Source: Bacteroidota bacterium (lineage in GTDB: Bacteria; Bacteroidota; Ignavibacteria; UBA10030; UBA6906). From it: a DNA stretch of 64,000 nt. Below, piece by piece: positions 2,223 through 58,506 of the stretch; positions within the stretch are counted from its first letter, which is position 1; every line of letters begins with the position of its first letter. The translations under genes and the position numbers were made by a program. Below the pieces are notes generated by a model that saw only the letters and a program-made list of their open reading frames with translations, made no database searches and was not told where the DNA came from. The DNA is taken from assembly GCA_040756745.1 (NCBI GenBank), contig JBFLYO010000003.1:15072-79071 (forward strand). The letters are read 5' to 3'.

Positions 2223-4700
2223 ATGGCGAGGAATTCGCTCACGCTGGTCATACTCCTGATCTCCTCACCCCTTCTCGGCGTGGCGGAACCCTCACCGAAG
2301 AAAGCCATTGCGGTCCGGACGCTCTCGCCTCCCGTTATTGACGGGCTGGTGGATGACCCGCAGTGGGCGACCGCCCCGCCGCTCCTCGATTTCACTCAGT
2401 TTGACCCTGTCGAAGGGGTCCTGCCGACCGAACTGACATCGGTGCGGCTCCTCTACGACAACAGCGCCCTGTACGTCGGGGTCATCTGTTACGATGCTCA
2501 TCCGGAACAGATCGTCCGCCAACTCACGCGCAGAGACCGTAGCTCGGAGGCGGACAGGTTCAGCGTGATGATCGACTCGTACTTTGACCGGCAGACGGCG
2601 TTCGTATTTGTCACGAACGTGTCCGGGGTGCAGAGCGACGGCGTGCTCTCACAGGACGGCGCGCTCTACGATCTGAGCTGGGACGCGGTCTGGACAGTAC
2701 GGACACGAGTGTATCGCGACGGCTGGTCGGCGGAATTCGAAATTCCCTACAACGCGATCAGGTTTGCGGAACAGGCGAGAGGCGTGTACACCTGGGGGAT
2801 CAACTTCCGGCGCTACATCAGCCGCAAGAAGGAAACCGACGAATGGGTCATGGTACCGCGGCGCGAGATGCTGCAGATCTCCCGCTGGGGGACCGTGGAG
2901 GGGATCAAGGACATTACACCGCCGTTGCATCTGGAACTCCTTCCGTATCTCTCCGGCACCGCATCGTACCAGACGGCATATCCCGGGCGCCCATGGAATT
3001 CATCGTACAGCTGGCAGGGAGGTGTTGATCTGAAATACGGCATCGAGAGGAATTTCACCGTCGATGCAACGATCAATCCCGACTTCGGACAGGTGGAAGT
3101 GGATCAGTCGGTGCTCAATCTCACGGTCTTTGAAACACGGTTCCCCGAGAAGCGGCCCTTCTTTGTTGAAGGGGCCCAGCTCTTCACGTTCGGATCCGCC
3201 GTGGATAACACGCCGCTCTCGGTCTTCTTTTCGCGGCGCGTCGGGAAACGTCCCTCCGGCAGTCCGTTCGTCGTCGAACCGCCGGGCGGCAGCATCGAAG
3301 AAAATCCGCAGGTGACGACAATCTTTGGGGCCGTGAAGTTATCCGGGCGATCCCATTCCGGCTTCTCCATGGGACTGCTGAGCGCGGCGACGGATGAGGA
3401 GAAGGCGGTGCTCGTTGACTCTGCCGGTGCGCGCACCGGCACCGTTACGGAGCCGCGGGCCTCGTACAATGTCGTACGGCTGAAGCAGGATTTCGACGGC
3501 GGCTCGTGGCTCGGCGCGATCGGAACGCTGGCATCACGCAGAACGATGAACCCTGCATTCGCCGGCGGATTGGATTGGAACATCCGGCTGGATGGCGGCA
3601 CCTACACGATCGACGGGTACGGTGCGGCGGCGCATTCTTCGACGGAACGGGTTCTGCGCGACGGTTCGTCGGGGCGCGACGGCGGGGCGGGCCGTGTGCT
3701 GTTCTCCCGCATTGCGGCGGAGCACTGGCTGTACACCGGATCGTTTGATTTCTATACGCGCTATTTCAATCTGAACGACCTGGGCTTCTTCGCCCAGCCG
3801 CATGACTACGGCGGATACACGCAGCTGCTCTACCGGGAGAATTTCGGAACCGGTCTCTTCCGGCGCTATGCGATCTCGGCCGTCCCGGAAGCGCGATGGA
3901 ACTGGGACGGCGTGTTGACGAACGCTTTGTCGGACCTGTCGTTCACCGGCGAGTTCATGAATTTCTGGCGGCTGGTGCTGGTCTACGACCTTGCGTTCCG
4001 CGCCTACGACGATGAAGAGCGGGGGATCATCGGCCTCTACCGGCGGCCACTCAGCCACACCTTCCGCACGCAGGTCAAAACCGACGAGCGCAGGAATATT
4101 TCTGCCACACTCACGCTGTCGTATGCATTTGATGAACGGCGGAAGCAGTCATGGAGCGGATCGCTCGGGCTCACCATCCGGCCGGTGTCATGGATTGAAT
4201 TGAGCCCGTCTCTGTTATGGACGCAAACGCGGGGCGAAGAGGCCTGGGCATTCCCGGCGGGGAACGTGTTCGATCCGGCGGTAAGCGCAACGCCCTTCAG
4301 CGTGTTCGGCGACAGGGATCTTGATCAGGTGGACGTGGAACTCCGGGGGATTGTCACATTCTCGAGGACGCTCTCGCTACAGTTCTTCTCGCAAATCCTG
4401 CTCGCCCGCGGCACATACCTGGACTACAGGCGATTCGATGGGCCACGAGCGATCCCGTATGACTTTGCCTCGTCTGCCGGGTACATTAGTCCCAATTTCA
4501 ATGAAGCGGTCTTCAACGCAAACGTTCTTCTCCGGTGGGAGTACCTGCCGGGGAGCACGCTGTATCTGGTCTGGACGCAGGGGAGGTTCGGCGATTCAGG
4601 CAATCCTGCGACAGGATTTGAGCGGCGGCTGCGCGATACGTTTGCGCTTCCGCACGATGACGCGCTGCTGCTGAAGATCAGCTACTGGTTCCCGCTCTGA
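2223..4700 (+). CDS. secreted DUF5916-type protein with N-terminal carbohydrate-binding family 9-like domain and large C-terminal beta-rich domain
   Basis: It has a signal peptide. The N-terminal region (DDPQWATAPP...LLYDNSALYVGVICYD) resembles CBM9-like domains of Bacteroidota DUF5916 proteins. The ORF is 825 aa with a clean start. Confidence 0.55.
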   Translation: MARNSLTLVILLISSPLLGVAEPSPKKAIAVRTLSPPVIDGLVDDPQWATAPPLLDFTQFDPVEGVLPTELTSVRLLYDNSALYVGVICYDAHPEQIVRQLTRRDRSSEADRFSVMIDSYFDRQTAFVFVTNVSGVQSDGVLSQDGALYDLSWDAVWTVRTRVYRDGWSAEFEIPYNAIRFAEQARGVYTWGINFRRYISRKKETDEWVMVPRREMLQISRWGTVEGIKDITPPLHLELLPYLSGTASYQTAYPGRPWNSSYSWQGGVDLKYGIERNFTVDATINPDFGQVEVDQSVLNLTVFETRFPEKRPFFVEGAQLFTFGSAVDNTPLSVFFSRRVGKRPSGSPFVVEPPGGSIEENPQVTTIFGAVKLSGRSHSGFSMGLLSAATDEEKAVLVDSAGARTGTVTEPRASYNVVRLKQDFDGGSWLGAIGTLASRRTMNPAFAGGLDWNIRLDGGTYTIDGYGAAAHSSTERVLRDGSSGRDGGAGRVLFSRIAAEHWLYTGSFDFYTRYFNLNDLGFFAQPHDYGGYTQLLYRENFGTGLFRRYAISAVPEARWNWDGVLTNALSDLSFTGEFMNFWRLVLVYDLAFRAYDDEERGIIGLYRRPLSHTFRTQVKTDERRNISATLTLSYAFDERRKQSWSGSLGLTIRPVSWIELSPSLLWTQTRGEEAWAFPAGNVFDPAVSATPFSVFGDRDLDQVDVELRGIVTFSRTLSLQFFSQILLARGTYLDYRRFDGPRAIPYDFASSAGYISPNFNEAVFNANVLLRWEYLPGSTLYLVWTQGRFGDSGNPATGFERRLRDTFALPHDDALLLKISYWFPL

Positions 4701-5608
4701 CCGGCAACCCGATCGACGAAGAACTCCAGGACCCGCCGCCAGTATTCCACCCCCCCCACGTCGGCAATGTCGTTGTGCCGCGCCCCCTGTATGAGCCAGA
4801 GCTCCTTTGGCTCATTCGCGTTGGCAAAGACCGTTTCCGAATACGTGTACCTGATCAGGTTGTCAGCGGTTCCGTGGATAATGAAGATCGGAACACGAAC
4901 GTCTTTCACGGCTTCCAGTGGCGACACGGCGTTCGCCTTGAAGTGCGCGAGATGCTCCGACCGCTTGATGACGATGTTCCGGAGGTAATGCCAGGGCAGC
5001 TTGATCATCCGTCGCTGGTAATCGTCGAAGATGGTACGTAGTGTAGCGAAACCGCTCTCGGCGACGAGCGCGACAACGCGATGATCGATCGCGGCGACCT
5101 GGATTGCCACTGCGGCCCCCATGGAGGTTCCGAAGAGGCCAACCCGTCCCGTGCGCAGATCCTTTCTGTCGAGCAGCCAGGAGATCGCCGTCGTTGCGTC
5201 GTGCTTCTCGTAGAAGCCGTAGGTGCAGTACTTCCCCCCACTGTCACCGTGGCGCCGTGAATCGTAGAGGAAGACATTGAATCCAAGGTCGTGGAGCTGC
5301 TTTGCCATCGGCAGACCGACGATCTTGCACTCGCTGACGCCGTGGAGATACACAATGGTGCCCCGGGGCTCTGCCGGTGCCTGGATGAACCAGCAGCTCA
5401 ATGCAATGCCCTCGGGGGTCTTCAACGTGACCTCTTCAAATGGAAGGCCGAGGTCCGAAGGGTGGAAGACGGAGGTGAACCTGCGGTAATACTCAATGGT
5501 CCTGCGGTGAGGCTGGAGCAGCATCCCCGGGCCAATCACCAGCAGCACGGCGGACACGAAGACCATGAAGAGCACCGCCCATCCGAGCAGGAGCAGGAAG
5601 ACGGTCAT
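4682..5608 (-). CDS. membrane-anchored alpha/beta hydrolase
   Basis: It has the GxSxG nucleophile elbow (GTSMGAA) and an HGTADN acid/His region, with an N-terminal TM helix. The ORF track extends to 5785. I prefer the ATG at 5608 (MTVFLLLLGW...), which sits immediately before the TM segment; alternatives are 5647 and 5785. Confidence 0.65.
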   Translation of the reverse strand: MTVFLLLLGWAVLFMVFVSAVLLVIGPGMLLQPHRRTIEYYRRFTSVFHPSDLGLPFEEVTLKTPEGIALSCWFIQAPAEPRGTIVYLHGVSECKIVGLPMAKQLHDLGFNVFLYDSRRHGDSGGKYCTYGFYEKHDATTAISWLLDRKDLRTGRVGLFGTSMGAAVAIQVAAIDHRVVALVAESGFATLRTIFDDYQRRMIKLPWHYLRNIVIKRSEHLAHFKANAVSPLEAVKDVRVPIFIIHGTADNLIRYTYSETVFANANEPKELWLIQGARHNDIADVGGVEYWRRVLEFFVDRVAGQSGNQ

Positions 5609-25430: not shown

Positions 25431-25617
25431 CGTTGTAAACACAGGAAGGGCGCTGTGCTCTTAAATGAACGGTCGGTCGATAGGTGTCCAAAAATATGCA
25501 CATGGGAGAGCGCAACTCCTTCTCCCTCCTCTATTTTCAGGGCATTCTGATGGCACCCTTCTTGCAAACAAATTGGATACACCCACCGGACGGTCTCTCA
25601 ATGGAGGAGAGAACGAT

Positions 25618-26481
25618 ATGAACGCCAGATATGCAGCGATAGTCCTTGTTGCGATGGGAGCCCTCGGCGCCATCGCGCTCACAGGTTGTTACACTCAGTT
25701 CGGCACTCTTACCGAAGACAAGGAGCCCGGGGTCACGTCAGAGCCGGAGGAGTACGGGGAAGGAGTGACAGACGAAGAGTATGCCGAGGCACGGCAGCGG
25801 TTTTACTATGATTCGTATTATCCTGCTATCGATGTCGGGTTCTCGTTTGGGTGGGGCTATCCCTGGTACGGCTACCATCGTCCATGGTACGGCTACGGAT
25901 TTGGCTCCCCCTGGTATGGATACGGGTATCCCTGGTATTACGACCCGTTCTATTATGGCAATTACTATGGAGTCTATTCTCCATGGTACGTCGGGCCCTT
26001 CTACCGCGGCGGCTATTATTCTGATAGGGCACCGAGTGTGAACACGACCCGGAGGATCGGATCGACGAGGACGCTCGGCGGGACGCGCGGTTCCACGGAT
26101 TATCGGGGGACCTCCACCGAGTTCGCTCCGCTTCCGACGGGGAAGAGATCGAGTGGCACGGTGACCACGGGCTCATCCGCGCCGACGTCGGGCGGTCGGT
26201 CAGGGGTGAACACGGGCCGCAGGGGGACGGCGGGGGAGCGGCGGGATGGATCGCAGGGGCGCACGGTCAGCACTCCCCCAAAGGGAGGTTCGCGTGAGCA
26301 AGCGGCTCCTGCACCTTCTTCCGATACGCGACGAGGAAGTTCGGGTGGAAGCAGGACGCCGTCGTACACTCCACCACCTTCTTCTCCTCCTCCCTCAAGC
26401 GCTCCTTCTTCGGGGGGCAGCCGTGGCGGTGAAAGTCGCGGCGGAAGCGGTGGAGGCAACAGGGGCGGCGGCCGGCGGTAA
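25618..26481 (+). CDS. lipoprotein with Tyr/Trp/Gly-rich aromatic repeat block (PWYGY-type) and Ser/Gly/Arg/Pro-rich disordered tail
   Basis: RBS GGAGG before the ATG at 25618 and lipobox LTGC. The aromatic block is GWGYPWYGYHRPWYGYGFGSPWYGYGYPWYYDPFYYGNYYGVYSPWYVGPFY. The C-terminus is RGG/SGG-rich. Confidence 0.55.
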   Translation: MNARYAAIVLVAMGALGAIALTGCYTQFGTLTEDKEPGVTSEPEEYGEGVTDEEYAEARQRFYYDSYYPAIDVGFSFGWGYPWYGYHRPWYGYGFGSPWYGYGYPWYYDPFYYGNYYGVYSPWYVGPFYRGGYYSDRAPSVNTTRRIGSTRTLGGTRGSTDYRGTSTEFAPLPTGKRSSGTVTTGSSAPTSGGRSGVNTGRRGTAGERRDGSQGRTVSTPPKGGSREQAAPAPSSDTRRGSSGGSRTPSYTPPPSSPPPSSAPSSGGSRGGESRGGSGGGNRGGGRR

Positions 26482-52802: not shown

Positions 52803-52967
52803 GATGTAATATAGAGAATAGGGGAAGGAGTTTCAAACACGCGGTGGAACTTCGCTGCGTACAAGCCGCTTTACAGTGCGGGGACGTCCCCTGACCCCGT
52901 TTTGATTCTGAGGACTCAAAACACTACTTTAGCCAGGCAGAACGGAACCAGTGGACAGGAGTCGGGC

Positions 52968-54527
52968 GTGCGCCTCACCAGGAAAATCCTCATTGCGATC
53001 GTCCCCGTCTTTCTCATCTTCATCACCGTCAGCGTCGTGCTCCAGAATCAGTTCCAGGAACGGGAAATGATGGAAGAGGCACAGGTTGCAGCACACACCT
53101 ACGCCGACATCGTCAAAGAATCGCTCGTCAGCATGATGCTGAAGAACTACGAGGTGGACAGCAGCTTCATCGACCGCGTGAATATGTTGAAGCAGATTGA
53201 TACGCTTCGCGTGTTCGTCAATAATCTGAGAATCCGTGATGAGCTGCTGACTCCGGAACGGTACCTGCGCCTGCAACTGAAGTATGCGACCCTTCGCCCG
53301 AAAGACATGATAGAGAAGCGGGTGCTGGAAGGCGGCGAGCCCTTCTTCGAGCGGGAAGGAGAGTACTTCAGGGGCGTGATTCCCTTCACGGCCACGTCGG
53401 TCTGCCAGAAATGCCACGCCGTCCCGGTCGGGTACGCGCTGGGTGCGGCGGACATCCGGATCTCGTTTGCGCGGGTGTCGGCGGCCACGGCTCAGAACTG
53501 GAGCCGGTCGCTGATCATCTTTGTGGTCTTCGCGGCTGTCGTGATCGGCGTCGCGGTGATGATGTTCCGGATCTTCGTTTCCAAGCCCGTGCGCGGCCTG
53601 GTCGGCGCTACGTTTCAGATCAGCCGGGGGAACCTCGACACCCCGGTACCGGGGGCGGAGGTGCTTCGTCCCGGCGAAGACGAGCTTGCCGTGCTGTCCC
53701 TCCGATTCGATGAAATGAGAATCTCCCTCAAGGAAAAGATCGACCAGCTTGACCACGCCAACCGGTCGCTCTCCGACCGAAATACCGAGCTCGAAAGAGC
53801 TCTGGACCGCCTCCGCAAGGCGCAGGAGGATCTCGTCCGCAGCGAGCGTCTTGCCGTGACAGGGAAGCTGACCGCACAACTTTCACACGAGATCAACAAT
53901 CCGATCCACAATATCCAGAGTCTCCTGGAGTCCGCCCTGCGCAAGGTGAACGGCAACGTCGCCCTCCGGGAACTCATCGGCGTCGCTCTTGAAGAAGTGT
54001 CCCGGATGGCAAAGCTGACCCGCCAGATGCTCGATTTCTACCGGGGGTCAGTGGTCGAACACGAGCAGGATGAAGTGGATCTCCGGAGTCTTCTTGTGGA
54101 AACCGCGCGCAGCTACACGCCCCAGCTCGAACAGGCGGGGATCACGGTGGTCCTCGAAGCGAACGAGCCGGTTCCCCCCGTGCGTGGGTCGCGCGACAAG
54201 CTGAAGCAGGTGCTGATCAATCTCGTGATCAATGCGCGCGACGCCATGGACTCTGGCGGGATGCTGGCCCTGCGCTGCCGGGCAAACCGTGGGAGCGTCT
54301 GCGTCGAGGTTGCGGACACCGGCGTGGGGATTCCGGAAGAGAACATGGGGCGGATCTTCGAGGCGTTTTTCACCACCAAGAAGGAAGTGAGTGGCGTGGG
54401 TCTGGGACTAGCCGTCAGCTATGGCATCGTCCAGGCGCACCAGGGCACCATCGCCGTCCGCAGCACAATCGGGAAAGGGACGACGTTCATTATCGAACTC
54501 CCGGCATCGGCCGACGTCCATGTCTGA
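52968..54527 (+). CDS. sensor histidine kinase with periplasmic CxxCH heme-binding PAS-like (Tll0287/DUF3365-like) sensor domain
   Basis: TM helix, then a sensor region carrying VCQKCHAVPVGYALGAADI (CxxCH), a second TM, HAMP, H-box LSHEINNPIHNI and G-boxes DTGVGIPEEN and GVGLGLAVSYG. The start was chosen at the GTG at 52968 (RBS AGGAG). The track begins at the TTG at 52902. Confidence 0.8.
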   Translation: MRLTRKILIAIVPVFLIFITVSVVLQNQFQEREMMEEAQVAAHTYADIVKESLVSMMLKNYEVDSSFIDRVNMLKQIDTLRVFVNNLRIRDELLTPERYLRLQLKYATLRPKDMIEKRVLEGGEPFFEREGEYFRGVIPFTATSVCQKCHAVPVGYALGAADIRISFARVSAATAQNWSRSLIIFVVFAAVVIGVAVMMFRIFVSKPVRGLVGATFQISRGNLDTPVPGAEVLRPGEDELAVLSLRFDEMRISLKEKIDQLDHANRSLSDRNTELERALDRLRKAQEDLVRSERLAVTGKLTAQLSHEINNPIHNIQSLLESALRKVNGNVALRELIGVALEEVSRMAKLTRQMLDFYRGSVVEHEQDEVDLRSLLVETARSYTPQLEQAGITVVLEANEPVPPVRGSRDKLKQVLINLVINARDAMDSGGMLALRCRANRGSVCVEVADTGVGIPEENMGRIFEAFFTTKKEVSGVGLGLAVSYGIVQAHQGTIAVRSTIGKGTTFIIELPASADVHV

Positions 54528-55920
54528 TCAGGCATCCATCCTCGTGGTCGACGACGACAAGGCCTTCCGCGTCGCCACCAAAACTCTGCTGGAAGATGAA
54601 GGATTTGTCGTAGCGACTGCTGCAAGCGGCGACGAAGCGCTGACGAAGATGGAGACAGAGCAGTTCGATCTGGTGCTCTCTGATATGGTAATGGGAAAGA
54701 TGAGCGGCGTGGAACTGCTTGCCAACGTCAAAGCGAAGCGCCCCGACCTCCCCGTCATCATGGTCACCGGCTTCGGCTCCATTCAGACGGCGGTGGAGGC
54801 GATGCGGCTTGGTGCGTCGGATTACCTGACGAAACCATCCAACAACGACGAGCTGCTCATCAAGATCCGCCGCGCCCTGGAGATGCAGGACAAGGAGCGT
54901 CAGCTCCGCTCGCTTCGTGAGGAGCTGCAGGGGACCTACAGCTTCGGCAACATGGTGAGCCGCAGCCCGGTAATGCAGGAAGTGATACGTCAGGTGCAGC
55001 AGGTGGCCGACACCGACGTGACGATCCTCATCCAGGGGGAAAGCGGGACAGGCAAGGAGCTCGTCGCGCGCGCGCTCCACTTTAACAGCAAACGCTCCCT
55101 GAAACCGTTCGTCGTCGTCAACTGCTCGGCGATCCCCGAAAATCTGCTGGAGAGCGAACTCTTTGGGTATGAGCGCGGCGCCTTCACGGGAGCGACCCGC
55201 CAGCGGGCAGGAAAGTTCGAAGAAGCGAACAACGGTACACTCTTCCTGGATGAGATCGGGGACATCTCACCCGCCGTTCAGACCAAGCTGCTCCGGGCCC
55301 TTCAGGATAAAACCTTTGAGCGGGTCGGCGGAACGGGATCCATCAGCGTGAACACCCGCGTCGTTGCTGCAACCAACCGGAACCTTGATGTGATGGTCCG
55401 TCAGGGGGACTTCCGCGAGGATCTGTTCTATCGCCTCAATGTCTTCCCGATTGTACTTCCTCCGCTGCGCGAACGACTTGAAGACATCCCGCTCCTGACG
55501 GAACATTTCCTGCACCGCCATGCGGACCTGGCAGGAGGGACGGTGAAGTCAGTGGCCACCGCCGTGATCAGCGACATGATGAACTATACGTGGCGGGGGA
55601 ACATCCGCGAACTGGAGAATCTGATCAAACGCGCCATCATCAAGACCCCCGGCGAGGTGATCACGTCGCTCGAACTTCCCAACGTCGAGCCCGCCGCGCC
55701 GTCATCCGGGGAGCCCGCCGAGGGCGTCAACCTGAACACTCCGTATAAAGACTACATCGGCAGCATCATCCGCCATGCCGAGGAGCGGTACCTGGTCCGC
55801 ATGCTCCGCCTCTGCAAGGGGAACATCAACCAGGTGGCGAAGCTGATGGACGTAGACCGGAAGACCATTTATCGCAAGATGTCCGACTATTCGATCGATC
55901 CGGCCTCGTTCCGCGAATGA
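54520..55920 (+). CDS. sigma-54-dependent response regulator (NtrC family: REC, AAA+ with GAFTGA, Fis-type HTH)
   Basis: Receiver (ILVVDDD...DLVLSDMVM), Walker A GESGTGKE, GAFTGA, ESELFGYERGAFTGA and a C-terminal HTH. The ATG at 54520 overlaps the kinase stop by 8 nt. Confidence 0.9.
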   Translation: MSDQASILVVDDDKAFRVATKTLLEDEGFVVATAASGDEALTKMETEQFDLVLSDMVMGKMSGVELLANVKAKRPDLPVIMVTGFGSIQTAVEAMRLGASDYLTKPSNNDELLIKIRRALEMQDKERQLRSLREELQGTYSFGNMVSRSPVMQEVIRQVQQVADTDVTILIQGESGTGKELVARALHFNSKRSLKPFVVVNCSAIPENLLESELFGYERGAFTGATRQRAGKFEEANNGTLFLDEIGDISPAVQTKLLRALQDKTFERVGGTGSISVNTRVVAATNRNLDVMVRQGDFREDLFYRLNVFPIVLPPLRERLEDIPLLTEHFLHRHADLAGGTVKSVATAVISDMMNYTWRGNIRELENLIKRAIIKTPGEVITSLELPNVEPAAPSSGEPAEGVNLNTPYKDYIGSIIRHAEERYLVRMLRLCKGNINQVAKLMDVDRKTIYRKMSDYSIDPASFRE

Positions 55921-56061: not shown

Positions 56062-56077
56062 TGGCACAGTGGTTGAC
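56062..56077 (+). promoter_or_regulatory. candidate sigma-54 (-24/-12) promoter element TGGCACAGTGGTTGAC upstream of the ECF sigma gene
   Basis: TGGCAC-N5-TTGA compared with the consensus TGGCAC-N5-TTGCW. The GG to -12 spacing is correct but the -12 dinucleotide is GA rather than GC. It lies 53 nt upstream of the ATG at 56130 and directly downstream of the sigma-54 activator gene. Confidence 0.4.
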
Positions 56078-56129: not shown

Positions 56130-56690
56130 ATGATGACGACACGGTTCGAGCGGGAAGCCCTGACGCAGCTACCGGCGCTCCGTCACTACGCAGAGTCGCT
56201 GACGAAGGACCGGCAGCGATCTGACGACCTGGTGCAGGAAACGATGTTGAAAGCCCTCCGCTATTTCGACACGTACAGGGAGGGGACGAACTGCAGGGCG
56301 TGGCTGTTCCAGATATGCAAACACTCGTTCATCAACGAGTACCGTCGAAAGGAATACGAGCCGATCCTCGTCGATTTCCAGTCGGAGGCCGGCGGCGGAG
56401 ATGATGCGGGGGAATGGCATGGCGTGCACCCTTCGCTCAACGATGCCTCCGCGCAGCAGGATGACGGCGCGATGCTTGGAGACGAGGTGACCTCGGCGCT
56501 GCGAGGTCTCCCCCACGACTACCAGACCGTGCTGCTCCTGAACGACATCGAGGGATACACGTACGACGAGATTGCGGCGTTCATGCAGGTGCCCGTCGGC
56601 ACGATTCGCTCCCGTATCCACCGTGCCCGCAAGATGCTCGCGGCGAGGCTGGAGCGCTATGCTGAAGAGCTGGGATACAGACAGAACTAG
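56130..56690 (+). CDS. RNA polymerase sigma factor, ECF (sigma-70 group 4) family
   Basis: Region 2 (LVQETMLKALRYFDTYREGTNCRAWLFQICKHSFINEYRR) and region 4 (LLLNDIEGYTYDEIAAFMQVPVGTIRSRIHRAR). The start was chosen at MMTTRFE with RBS GGGGGAA. The track ORF extends upstream with no domain content. Confidence 0.85.
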   Translation: MMTTRFEREALTQLPALRHYAESLTKDRQRSDDLVQETMLKALRYFDTYREGTNCRAWLFQICKHSFINEYRRKEYEPILVDFQSEAGGGDDAGEWHGVHPSLNDASAQQDDGAMLGDEVTSALRGLPHDYQTVLLLNDIEGYTYDEIAAFMQVPVGTIRSRIHRARKMLAARLERYAEELGYRQN

Positions 56691-56691
56691 G

Positions 56692-56782
56692 GTGAAGCAC
56701 ATTCAATTCGGATTGCGGATTGCGAAGTGCGGAATATTCCGCAATCCACACTCCGCAATCCGCAATGCTGAGATTGCTTCAC
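56692..56782. repeat. Family 2 palindromic element between the ECF sigma stop and the cyc2-like gene start
   Basis: Outer arms GTGAAGCA...TGCTTCAC. Inner imperfect palindrome CGGATTGCGGATTGCGAAGTGCGGAATATTCCGCAATCCACACTCCGCAATCCG. Confidence 0.75.
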
Positions 56783-56850
56783 ACCGATGGCCTGAGTATA
56801 TTGCCCCGTTTCCTGTTCTTTTCCCGCAGACAGCTCACAAGGAGCGCATC

Positions 56851-57948
56851 ATGATGATCCGCCGGCCGATTATGCTCGTCCTTCTTGCGGCATCTGTGGC
56901 GTTCACCGCAGAAGCGCTGCCCCGGTTCTCCTCCCGCACCGGTTTCAAGTGTCAGTCCTGCCACGTCAACCCGTCAGGCGGGGCAATGCGCCTTGCCAAC
57001 GGGGTCCAGTACGGCAGGGAACAGCTTCCCGTTCCCGAGTGGTCAAAGGAGTTCGAAGTCGAAGACTTCTCCAACGTCATCACGAACATCCTGGGAGTGG
57101 GAGCGGACGTTCGGACCCTTTTTTTCTATCAGCGCCTGACCGACACAACGACGCTGAACGGTTTCTGGCAGATGCAGGGAGACATCTACCTGAATTTTCG
57201 AATCGCGAGAAAGATCAGCTTCTTCCTCAAGAAGGGACTGCGGGACGGGTTTGAAGCGTACGGACTCTTCTCCGTCCTCCCAGCGACGGGATACGTGAAG
57301 GTGGGGAAATTCCTCCCGAACTACGGACTCAGAATCGACGACCATACGACATACATCCGGCAGGTTACCGGCATGAGCCCTGAACGCGGCCGCGTGGAAC
57401 GGACCGGGTTGGAACTCGCCATATCCCCGGGTCCGCTCACGTTCAGCGGAGGGATGTACAATGCGGAAGAGGGGAACTTCCCAACGTCGTCAAGCAAGAA
57501 GGCCATTCTGGGACGCGCTGAAGGACTGTTCAACCTGGGCGAAGAGCTCTTCCTTGGGCTGGGAGGCAATGTGTTCATCAGGGAAGTGCAGGGAGTGAGG
57601 TCGACGTACTATGGCGGATTCGGCTCGTTCAGCGTGGGGCGGCTTACGGTATTTGGTGAAGCTGACCTGGTGAGGAACAAGACCCCTGGTGGGACGACGG
57701 TGAAGGAGCTGGTAACGTATGTGGAGGGGGACATGATGATCACCCAGGGGCTCGATCTGAAGCTCGCATTCGATTTCCACGATCTCGACCTGGATCTCAA
57801 GTCGGGAACAAAATCGCGTTACAGCGTCGGGTTTGAATTCTTCCCCGTGGGCGGCGTGGAGGTCCGACCGGTGTACCGGATTGTCAGGGAGAACCCGAGC
57901 GTGGGCAACAGGGACGAGTTTCATCTGCTTCTGCACTTGTATCTCTGA
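56851..57948 (+). CDS. outer-membrane beta-barrel protein with N-terminal CxxCH heme motif. Candidate Cyc2-like fused monoheme cytochrome-porin
   Basis: Strong RBS AAGGAG and a signal peptide MMIRRPIMLVLLAASVAFTAEA. CQSCH (KCQSCHVNPSGG) lies within 15 residues of the predicted mature N-terminus. It is followed by about 330 residues of alternating Gly/aromatic beta-strand-like sequence. The ORF track start at 56572 overlaps the sigma gene and was rejected. Confidence 0.5.
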   Translation: MMIRRPIMLVLLAASVAFTAEALPRFSSRTGFKCQSCHVNPSGGAMRLANGVQYGREQLPVPEWSKEFEVEDFSNVITNILGVGADVRTLFFYQRLTDTTTLNGFWQMQGDIYLNFRIARKISFFLKKGLRDGFEAYGLFSVLPATGYVKVGKFLPNYGLRIDDHTTYIRQVTGMSPERGRVERTGLELAISPGPLTFSGGMYNAEEGNFPTSSSKKAILGRAEGLFNLGEELFLGLGGNVFIREVQGVRSTYYGGFGSFSVGRLTVFGEADLVRNKTPGGTTVKELVTYVEGDMMITQGLDLKLAFDFHDLDLDLKSGTKSRYSVGFEFFPVGGVEVRPVYRIVRENPSVGNRDEFHLLLHLYL

Positions 57949-57954
57949 ACGAAC

Positions 57955-58407
57955 ATGGAGAAGCGCGTGTCTCTGCGTCTGGCGATCTCGATAATTCTTG
58001 TCGCGGCGCCGGTGTGCTCATTCGCTCAGAGCAAGAGTCGGGGTTTGATGAATCAAACCCCGACTCTGACGAAACCCGGAAAGACGATTTCGTTCAGGCA
58101 GGATGTGTTTCCGATCATCAGCAAGAACTGCCTTCCGTGCCACGCAGAGGACAACTTCAATCCGAGCGAGCTATCCCTTGATTCCTATGAGCTCTTGATG
58201 GAAGGAGGGAAGCATGGCCCGCCTGTTGTCGCGGGGAACGCGAAGGAGAGTCTCATCGTGAGGAAGACCGGGCTCAATCCGCCGTTTGGGGACCGGATGC
58301 CATTGAACTCCAAGCAGAAGATCGAATCGGGAAATGCCAAATGGCTCACGGAGGCGGAACTGAAGATCATCGCAGAATGGGTGGAGCAAGGGGCGAAGGA
58401 TAATTAG
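57955..58407 (+). CDS. small secreted monoheme c-type cytochrome with PSCyt1-like (planctomycete cytochrome c) heme-binding domain
   Basis: Signal peptide (…CSFAQS). DVFPIISKNCLPCHAED...LMEGGKHGPPVVAGNAKESLIVRK matches the PSCyt1 pattern around its CxxCH. Confidence 0.65.
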   Translation: MEKRVSLRLAISIILVAAPVCSFAQSKSRGLMNQTPTLTKPGKTISFRQDVFPIISKNCLPCHAEDNFNPSELSLDSYELLMEGGKHGPPVVAGNAKESLIVRKTGLNPPFGDRMPLNSKQKIESGNAKWLTEAELKIIAEWVEQGAKDN

Positions 58408-58417
58408 AAATGAGAGA

Positions 58418-58506
58418 TTCAGTCGGGGCTGAATATATTCAGCCCCGACTGAATCAGAAGTTGTCAATTGTCATTGCGGGGCCGGTGTGGGAGCACACCG
58501 GCCCCC
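58418..58506. terminator. two consecutive perfect hairpins after the cytochrome c gene (probable bidirectional terminator)
   Basis: The first is GATTCAGTCGGGGCTGAATAT/ATATTCAGCCCCGACTGAATC, a 19-bp perfect palindrome. The second is GGGGCCGGTGTG-GGAG-CACACCGGCCCC, followed by a T-rich tract. Confidence 0.6.

Follow-up and report, generated by a model that had tools for sequence, protein, structure and literature searches.

A probable compact, divergent Cyc2-type cytochrome-porin and its linked small cytochrome in an Ignavibacteria genome

Does a 365-aa protein with one heme-binding motif, encoded at 56,851-57,948 of a 64,000-nucleotide stretch of Bacteroidota DNA (the window, hereafter), belong with Cyc2, the main marker gene for inferring microbial iron oxidation from genomes and metagenomes? 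An earlier note, made from the sequence alone, had described a single CxxCH motif close behind the signal peptide of a predicted outer-membrane barrel, and had preferred a fused, Cyc2-like cytochrome-porin to a protein of the MtrB type. We examined the gene itself, its relatives, its fit to published and newly built descriptions of Cyc2, and its neighbors in the window. The target gene and the parts of its product are as follows.

56851-57948, + strand: predicted fused monoheme cytochrome-porin gene, 365 aa, a divergent Cyc2 superfamily member by profile comparison (open reading frame and translation)
56851-56916, + strand: signal peptide, residues 1-22, predicted to be cleaved between AEA and L (by eye from the sequence: MMIRRPIMLVLLAASVAFTAEA, followed by L)
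56914-56940, + strand: degenerate Cyc2-type motif A-L-P-R-F-S-S-R-T, the counterpart of AxPxFAR[Q/K][T/Y] in the same register
56950-56964, + strand: CQSCH heme c attachment motif (C34, C37, and H38; residues 34-38), predicted from sequence
56965-57090, + strand: conserved post-heme linker (VNPSGGAMR...YGREQLPVPEW), which stands in for the PxL segment of canonical Cyc2
57091-57942, + strand: 16-strand beta-barrel porin domain, residues 81-364, ending in HLYL with the conserved H362 (AlphaFold2 model)

The translation of this open reading frame is identical to the one quoted earlier, and its ATG start lies 6 nt 3′ of an AAGGAG ribosome-binding site. The signal peptide, read by eye, consists of a basic n-region (RR) followed by a hydrophobic core and an AxA site, and its length and character are kept across 29 homologs. 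The spacing given previously (14 residues between signal peptide and motif) needs correction: the first cysteine is the 12th residue of the mature protein, with 11 residues between it and the cleavage site. The protein contains two cysteines in total, both within CQSCH, and no second CxxCH, so the absence of another heme motif from the remainder is borne out by the translation. C34, C37, and H38 are invariant in 29 of 29 close homologs and in all 84 related loci that include the N-terminus, and the CxxCH is likewise invariant in 121 of 121 superfamily sequences, some of them less than 30% identical to the target. Within the window, three open reading frames of at least 100 aa carry a CxxCH, all of them between 52.9 and 58.4 kb and each with one motif. 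This clustering and rarity, together with the invariance among homologs, rule out a chance occurrence of the motif; and since the histidine following the cysteine pair is itself invariant, the pair is read as a heme c attachment site and not as a disulfide. In the linker, G43 and R47 are invariant throughout the superfamily. We infer heme attachment, the outer-membrane location, and the position of the heme module.

We ran AlphaFold2 on the target with the 29-sequence alignment, with heme absent from the model (mean pLDDT 69, pTM 0.69). Beyond the heme module the prediction is all-beta: residues 81-364 form 16 strands, the majority with pLDDT 70-93, and the outer-membrane barrel that had been predicted from the sequence thus finds its counterpart in a structural model. 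Residues 18-77, including the heme module and the linker, have pLDDT below 50, which is expected since the heme was not modelled. For a porin, the barrel is conserved to an unusual degree (mean column identity of 63% within the close clade). Besides the CxxCH and the two linker residues, G84, G152, and G159 are invariant in the superfamily; P24, R88, E188, H362, R170, D86, and Y113 are more than 90% conserved (H362, four residues from the C-terminus, reaches 96%), and M108 and H165 are each 81% conserved. The side chain of H362 probably faces the lumen, and H362, M108, and H165 are, on the basis of their conservation, candidate sixth ligands of the heme. Searches of Pfam, NCBIfam, and PDB sequences with the target gave zero matches; as canonical Cyc2 proteins likewise lack a Pfam or NCBIfam match, the null result in these two libraries is uninformative.

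The family to which the target belongs is large. A protein identical to it is deposited as a hypothetical protein (from a Bacteroidota MAG), and the source annotations of its relatives, distant members included, are either “hypothetical” or absent. A word-indexed search with the target returned 391 homologs, and exhaustive phmmer returned 1047 clusters at 50% identity (E ≤ 1e-3), 487 of them at E ≤ 1e-10. The 80 best genomic loci are without exception from uncultured MAGs of Ignavibacteria/Bacteroidota type and share 30-67% identity with the target. Members of the target family are 350-415 aa long, carry after the signal peptide the signature A-L-P-[RK]-[FY]-[AS]-x-[RQ]-x-G-x-x-C-x-x-C-H-[VI]-N-P-[ST]-G-G-G-[ML]-R, and end in x-H-x-[FY]-[LFY].

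We then compared the target with the published description of Cyc2 (Keffer et al., 2021; PMC8406198), which comprises a signal peptide, one CXXCH with AXPXFAR[Q/K][T/Y] upstream and PXL downstream, a C-terminal 16-strand beta-barrel porin of OprO/OprP-like structure, a length of at least 365 aa (most have at least 400), and either a BLASTP hit on a cluster representative at E ≤ 1e-5 or agreement with a FeGenie Cyc2 HMM. The target has the signal peptide (by eye), exactly one N-terminal CXXCH, and the 16-strand C-terminal porin, and with exactly 365 aa it sits at the length threshold. The strict PxFAR[QK][TY] motif is found in none of the 84 related loci and none of 150 listed representatives: the target reads ALPRFSSRT, and its family has ALPRF[AS]xRT where the canonical proteins have PxFAR[QK][TY]. 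The looser pattern P.F[AS]..[TY] occurs in 79 of the 84 loci, and in the target as in canonical Cyc2 the upstream motif ends three residues before the first cysteine (register compared with Ralstonia, Caballeronia, and others). PXL after the CXXCH is absent from the target and its family, which have H-V-N-P-[ST]-G-G-G-[ML]-R; at this position the canonical sets have FPEL or WPxLN. An HMM made from 80 canonical Cyc2 sequences, as a proxy for the FeGenie HMMs, scored the target at 13.8 bits (not significant), and tblastn of the target against Cyc2-carrying plasmids, as a proxy for the cluster representatives, gave one N-terminal match at E = 4; by both proxies the target would be expected to fall short of the BLASTP or HMM rule. 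These mismatches in strict motif, PxL, HMM, and tblastn explain how published pipelines could miss the target.

Because no curated library model recognises canonical Cyc2, we assembled two reference sets. The FARQT set was seeded with a 444-aa Polymorphobacter protein taken from that weak tblastn match (E = 4); a search with this protein brought in Cyc2-type genes from Ralstonia, Caballeronia, Paraburkholderia, an A. ferrooxidans plasmid, Acidiphilium, Ideonella, and Methylocystis, and a profile search enlarged the set by about 120 sequences (Burkholderia, Cupriavidus, Pandoraea, and others), with 105 of the 126 FARQT sequences carrying the strict motif. The FARKY set came from a metagenome scan for P-x-F-A-R-K-Y-x3-C-x2-C-H, which yielded 84 complete proteins of 400-524 aa with one CxxCH each, 80 of which went into the profile; a homolog search from this group for cultured iron oxidisers returned Nitrospira MAG proteins only.

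In hhalign comparisons of the heme module (without signal peptide), the target superfamily matched both FARQT (97.6%, E = 4e-12, 32 columns) and FARKY (97.7%, E = 2e-12, 42 columns). Control profiles of the unrelated small-cytochrome family scored 18-23 against the heme modules, where the Cyc2 sets scored 50-51, and the control alignments cover little beyond the CxxCH itself. The barrel of the target superfamily, taken alone, gave 4% against FARQT (E = 0.0095, 260 columns), which indicates that barrel composition by itself produces no match; against FARKY it gave 98.2% (E = 3e-14, 293 columns). For reference, the barrels of the two canonical sets, FARQT and FARKY, align to each other at 94.5% (E = 7e-8, 320 columns). 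At full length, FARKY was matched by the target superfamily (99.5%, E = 6e-23, 345 columns), by the 29-sequence clade of the target (98.9%, E = 1e-17, 332 columns), and by the single target sequence (97.1%, E = 6e-11, 316 columns), while four reversed-sequence nulls gave at most 0.6% (E = 0.09-0.43, 8-194 columns). The alignment between target and FARKY extends from the heme module through to the final strand, with the shared anchors A.P.FA...C..CH, FG, vKvGkF, GvE, and v.NG, and canonical Cyc2 owes its extra length to loop insertions. The FARQT comparison taken alone would have suggested that only the N-terminal module is shared with Cyc2; the full-length match to FARKY resolved this. As judged from these profiles, the target is a full-length homolog of Cyc2, with homology over both heme module and barrel, and it is as near to one of the canonical Cyc2 groups as those two groups are to one another. 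The alignment to canonical Cyc2 holds at full length against FARKY, and it does not extend to the FARQT barrel (4%) or to the strict motif (0 of 84 loci).

The genes and signals that surround the target gene on its downstream side, and the promoter that precedes it, form a small unit.

56774-56802, + strand: sigma-70-type promoter of the two-gene unit (TTGCTT, 17 nt, TATATT), read from the sequence
57955-58407, + strand: partner gene, a small secreted monoheme cytochrome c of 150 aa with a PSCyt1 domain, 6 nt downstream of the target stop codon
58416-58455, no strand assigned: perfect 18-bp palindromic hairpin, 9 nt past the stop codon of the small cytochrome gene (from the sequence)

The partner cytochrome has its heme motif, CLPCH, at 58,129-58,143, as well as a conserved GDRMPLN segment, and it matches PF07635 (PSCyt1) above the Pfam gathering score (29.2 bits for a cut-off of 22, E = 1.5e-6). 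Of the 71 loci with enough sequence, 62 have an ortholog downstream in the same orientation, and the linkage persists in loci at 37-40% identity where the other synteny (7TM-HD, XerD-like, and aminotransferase genes) is lost. In about half of the partner-linked loci, one or two lipoproteins (with an SCKDMG lipobox and a C-terminal PSCyt1-like domain containing CX2CH, CX3CH, or CX4CH) are encoded between the barrel gene and the partner; small secreted heme-motif proteins adjoin the barrel gene in distant superfamily members too. Among eight canonical Cyc2 loci that we fetched, six have an annotated c-type cytochrome gene directly downstream, so the two-gene logic of a barrel plus a periplasmic cytochrome is common to Cyc2 and the target family, although the partners belong to different families. 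In the promoter, the TTG and TATATT columns are conserved in 13 of 14 aligned upstream regions, and the hairpin, from its sequence and position, is likely a terminator that closes the two-gene unit.

Further upstream, the window contains three regulatory genes and a putative promoter element.

52902-54527, + strand: sensor histidine kinase (HAMP-HisKA-HATPase; Pfam), with CQKCH in its periplasmic part (CxxCH at residue 168)
54520-55920, + strand: sigma-54-dependent response regulator (REC-AAA+-Fis HTH; Pfam)
56062-56077, + strand: sigma-54 -24/-12-like element TGGCACAGTGGTTGAC, upstream of the ECF sigma gene (pattern TGGCAC, 5 nt, TTGM)
56130-56690, + strand: ECF-type sigma factor gene directly upstream of the barrel gene (Pfam, NCBIfam)

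The CxxCH of the kinase is conserved in all 11 orthologs that cover the region, and the kinase, which is associated with the cassette, may act as a heme-based redox sensor. The kinase-regulator pair adjoins the barrel gene in about 12 loci, in four of which (L021, L023, L025, and L029) a gap of only about 40-60 nt separates the end of the regulator gene from it. An ECF sigma ortholog is found upstream of the barrel gene in about 19 loci, and 14 of 19 have an equivalent -24/-12 element about 70 nt upstream of the ECF ortholog. This arrangement suggests a cascade from the heme-motif kinase through the sigma-54 activator to the ECF sigma factor. No sigma-54 promoter was found directly before the barrel gene, either in the window or in the loci where the regulator abuts it; an ECF-type promoter (GGAAC, 17 nt, CGTTC) was found before the barrel gene in few loci (L034, L047, and L060) and is unconvincing in the window, which leaves control of the barrel gene by the ECF sigma factor unproven. 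Neither kind of promoter was found conserved at the barrel gene, so that it is adjacency that suggests that the cascade may control the cassette.

Taking the open reading frame, the invariant CxxCH, the porin fold, the full-length homology to Cyc2, and the conserved linkage to a small cytochrome together, we consider it probable (about 0.7) that the target is a compact, divergent Cyc2, that is, an outer-membrane 16-strand porin with an N-terminal module of about 60 residues that carries one covalent c-type heme; it is probably a trans-outer-membrane electron conduit. In the mechanism that we propose, in which we infer the electron-transfer partner, the direction of flow, the substrate, and the regulatory link, the precursor would be exported by Sec and cleaved after AEA, heme would be joined to C34 and C37 with H38 as the proximal ligand, and the barrel would insert into the outer membrane with the heme module within the pore mouth on the periplasmic side, or next to it. 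A reduced substrate, either extracellular or diffusing through the pore, would then reduce the heme, and the electron would pass to the small soluble PSCyt1-type monoheme cytochrome and on to the respiratory chain. The barrel and small cytochrome genes would be expressed as one unit from their own sigma-70-type promoter as far as the terminal hairpin, and in a subset of lineages, that of the target included, the kinase, sigma-54 activator, and ECF sigma factor may tune expression to the periplasmic redox state. By analogy with Cyc2, dissolved Fe(II) would be the likeliest substrate: the three superfamily members characterised by experiment (A. ferrooxidans Cyc2, Cyt572, and Cyc2PV-1) all act as Fe(II) oxidases (PMC8406198, PMC7029218). 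Fe(II) and inward flow are proposed here as an analogy, since the lifestyles described for Ignavibacteria are heterotrophy and iron reduction (PMC8478452, PMC7914226) and many Cyc2-carrying organisms are without known iron oxidation (PMC7029218). No terminal oxidase or carbon-fixation genes were found beside the cassette within the 64-kb window.

The heterotrophy and iron reduction described for Ignavibacteria lend some weight to a protein of the same architecture and descent that does a different job from energy-conserving Fe(II) oxidation, passing electrons outward (to Fe(III), humics, or other extracellular acceptors), taking them from a donor other than iron, or oxidising Fe(II) purely for detoxification. 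Cyc2 homologs have been reported from iron-reducing Ignavibacteriaceae (PMC6344600), the cassette sits among housekeeping genes with a sigma-70-like promoter in front, and the post-heme segment and conserved barrel residues (H362, M108, H165, and many charged ones) are unlike those of canonical Cyc2, so that the heme environment and potential may differ. The uniform Fe(II) oxidase activity of the characterised members speaks against this, and so does the partner, a PSCyt1-type cytochrome with a conserved Met-Pro motif; cytochromes of this type are expected to be His/Met-ligated and of relatively high potential, and would then suit electron uptake towards an oxidase. We regard such a change of job as unlikely on the whole.

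The heme might also not be an electron relay at all, serving a porin instead in sensing redox state or gases, in peroxidase activity, or in the handling of heme or iron. The conservation of the barrel, with its invariant charged residues, could reflect specific transport of this kind, but full-length homology to Cyc2 argues otherwise, and the tight and widespread association with one to three secreted cytochromes is easier to reconcile with an electron-transfer chain, making this reading improbable. Least credible is a sheath of the MtrB/PioB type that would hold a separate multiheme cytochrome, with the cysteine pair as a disulfide. MtrB-type barrels have an N-terminal CxxC without the histidine, and the target resembles them in having Cys-x-x-Cys near the N-terminus of an outer-membrane barrel; against this, the histidine is invariant (121 of 121), the barrel has 16 strands and not 26, and the window contains no multiheme open reading frame, its three CxxCH-bearing frames having a single motif each. 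An MtrB/PioB/MtoB-type identity is refuted by these observations, and the preference of the earlier note for a Cyc2-like cytochrome-porin is upheld by the invariant histidine together with the full-length profile homology.

The general idea of Cyc2-like genes in Ignavibacteria is not new: “Cyc2 homologs” have been reported in MAGs of Ignavibacteriaceae and Bacteroidetes (He et al., 2019; PMC6344600), and FeGenie-based work found iron-oxidation genes in Ignavibacteriales (PMC8478452). In the searchable literature we found no description of the signature of this clade, of the failure of the motif despite full-length homology to Cyc2, of the size of the clade, of its PSCyt1-type partners, or of the associated kinase, sigma-54 regulator, and ECF sigma factor. 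The published rules for Cyc2 (motif, 365-aa minimum, and BLAST/HMM cut-off) would exclude the target and probably the whole clade; if the clade is active, the iron or electron-transfer potential of Ignavibacteria/Bacteroidota in soils, groundwater, and sediments is under-counted or mis-assigned. More tentatively, and as a suggestion that we would not yet favor, the family may be an unrecognised sister clade of Cyc2, of very large size (no fewer than 1047 clusters at 50% identity) and common in Ignavibacteria/Bacteroidota MAGs, that serves heterotrophs as a general outer-membrane electron gate, with its own heme environment (NP[ST]GGG[ML]R and a conserved C-terminal His and Met), its own PSCyt1 partners, and a regulatory cascade in some lineages, and that is no marker of lithotrophic iron oxidation. 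If this were true, surveys for Cyc2 by motif, BLAST, or HMM would miss or misread a major share of extracellular electron-transfer capacity. The target, with about 365 aa, short loops, and a well-conserved barrel, would be a convenient minimal model for electron transfer through a single-heme porin, and the PSCyt1-type cytochrome and heme-motif kinase are concrete, testable partners for it.

Compared with known systems, the target is most similar to Cyc2 (A. ferrooxidans Cyc2 and Mariprofundus Cyc2PV-1; clusters 1-3 of McAllister 2020 and Keffer 2021). Both have a signal peptide, one CxxCH near the N-terminus with A-x-P-x-F-A-..-T/Y ahead of it in matching register, [FY]G soon after the heme site, a 16-strand OprP-like porin, and a periplasmic cytochrome gene downstream. 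They differ in that R-[QK] of the Cyc2 motif is replaced by S/A-R/Q and PxL by NP[ST]GGG[ML]R in the target family; that the target has 365 aa whereas canonical Cyc2 has a median of about 466 (400-524 in the sets assembled here), the surplus being loop insertions in Cyc2; that the target family has a conserved C-terminal His, probably lumen-facing, which none of the eight canonical Cyc2 C-termini compared has; and that the partner is a PSCyt1-type monoheme cytochrome, in contrast to the c4-type Cyc1 of known Cyc2 systems. For Cyt572 of Leptospirillum (Cyc2 cluster 3), the link to the target would run through the canonical motif-bearing set. Similar to MtrAB, PioAB, and MtoAB, electrons would cross the outer membrane through a cytochrome-holding barrel, but those systems use two proteins, a 26-strand barrel, and a decaheme cytochrome, whereas the target would use one protein, 16 strands, and one heme. 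The phosphate-selective porins OprP and OprO and other 16-strand general porins share 8-17% identity with the target and are without a signal-proximal heme module. The PSCyt1 domain is usually found at the start of very large multidomain proteins; among PF07635 proteins, the partner of the target is a stand-alone secreted cytochrome, and in related loci the domain is fused to a lipoprotein Ig-like domain.

Four features surround the barrel gene, which encodes the divergent Cyc2-type cytochrome-porin, and its partner, the small-cytochrome gene (window coordinates):

52902-54527 (+): histidine kinase gene, with CQKCH within the periplasmic sensor region, FRGVIPFTATSVCQKCHAVPVGYALGAAD
56062-56077 (+): sigma-54 -24/-12-like element TGGCACAGTGGTTGAC, 5′ of the ECF sigma gene
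56708-56771: nested inverted repeats ATTGCGGATTGCG ... GCGGAATATTCCGC ... CGCAATCCGCAAT, in the gap that separates the stop of the ECF sigma gene from the barrel-gene promoter
58416-58455: perfect 18-bp palindrome GATTCAGTCGGGGCTGAATATATTCAGCCCCGACTGAATC, directly 3′ of the small-cytochrome gene

A counterpart of the sigma-54-like element was found in 14 of 19 related loci; this implies that the ECF sigma factor would be transcribed from a sigma-54 promoter, under a two-component activator. Across the window, the sigma-54 consensus (TGGCAC-N5-TTGCA) is matched perfectly at a single site, 25551-25566 (+) (TGGCACCCTTCTTGCA), which lies within, or at the beginning of, an ORF at 25465-26481. The CQKCH motif of the histidine kinase is kept in all 11 orthologs that cover this region, and a Pfam search with the sensor region gave zero model matches; the kinase may be a c-heme sensor of redox or gas.

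The inverted repeats are predicted to fold stably as RNA (-35.5 kcal/mol, z = -5.8); there is no T-tract 3′ of the element, and the other loci show no conservation of it. The repeats may serve as a terminator or an insulator, or may be a REP-like element. The palindrome after the small-cytochrome gene is likely a bidirectional terminator.

The barrel and small-cytochrome pair varies among the other loci. In L004 (7126-7845) a lipoprotein gene sits between the two, and insertions of this kind are also seen in L009, L018, L024, L028, L032, L033, L039, L041, L044, L046, and L049; the inserted lipoproteins (∼220-300 aa) each have a PSCyt1-like domain at the C-terminus, mostly with an unusual CX4CH (e.g., CVNAGCH) replacing CX2CH. 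In L065 (from about 4004) and L061, the small-cytochrome sequence is apparently continuous with the barrel reading frame, the run-on ORF terminating in ...NQGAKNN, with two CxxCH motifs in L065; the barrel and its partner cytochrome are either naturally fused here, or the run-on is an artefact of assembly or frameshift.

In L095, which holds a distant superfamily member, a 290-aa secreted protein is encoded directly upstream of the barrel gene (4123-4992; gap of 9 nt); it contains a CVEGCH (CX3CH) motif, in the context GPPDGRAGDPP...TCVEGCH, and has no Pfam family on record. On the Caballeronia plasmid (L088), the canonical Cyc2-type gene has a c-type cytochrome gene downstream and, closely 5′, a gene for a high-potential iron-sulfur protein (415-726), which is reminiscent of the Iro/PioC-type partners in iron oxidation.
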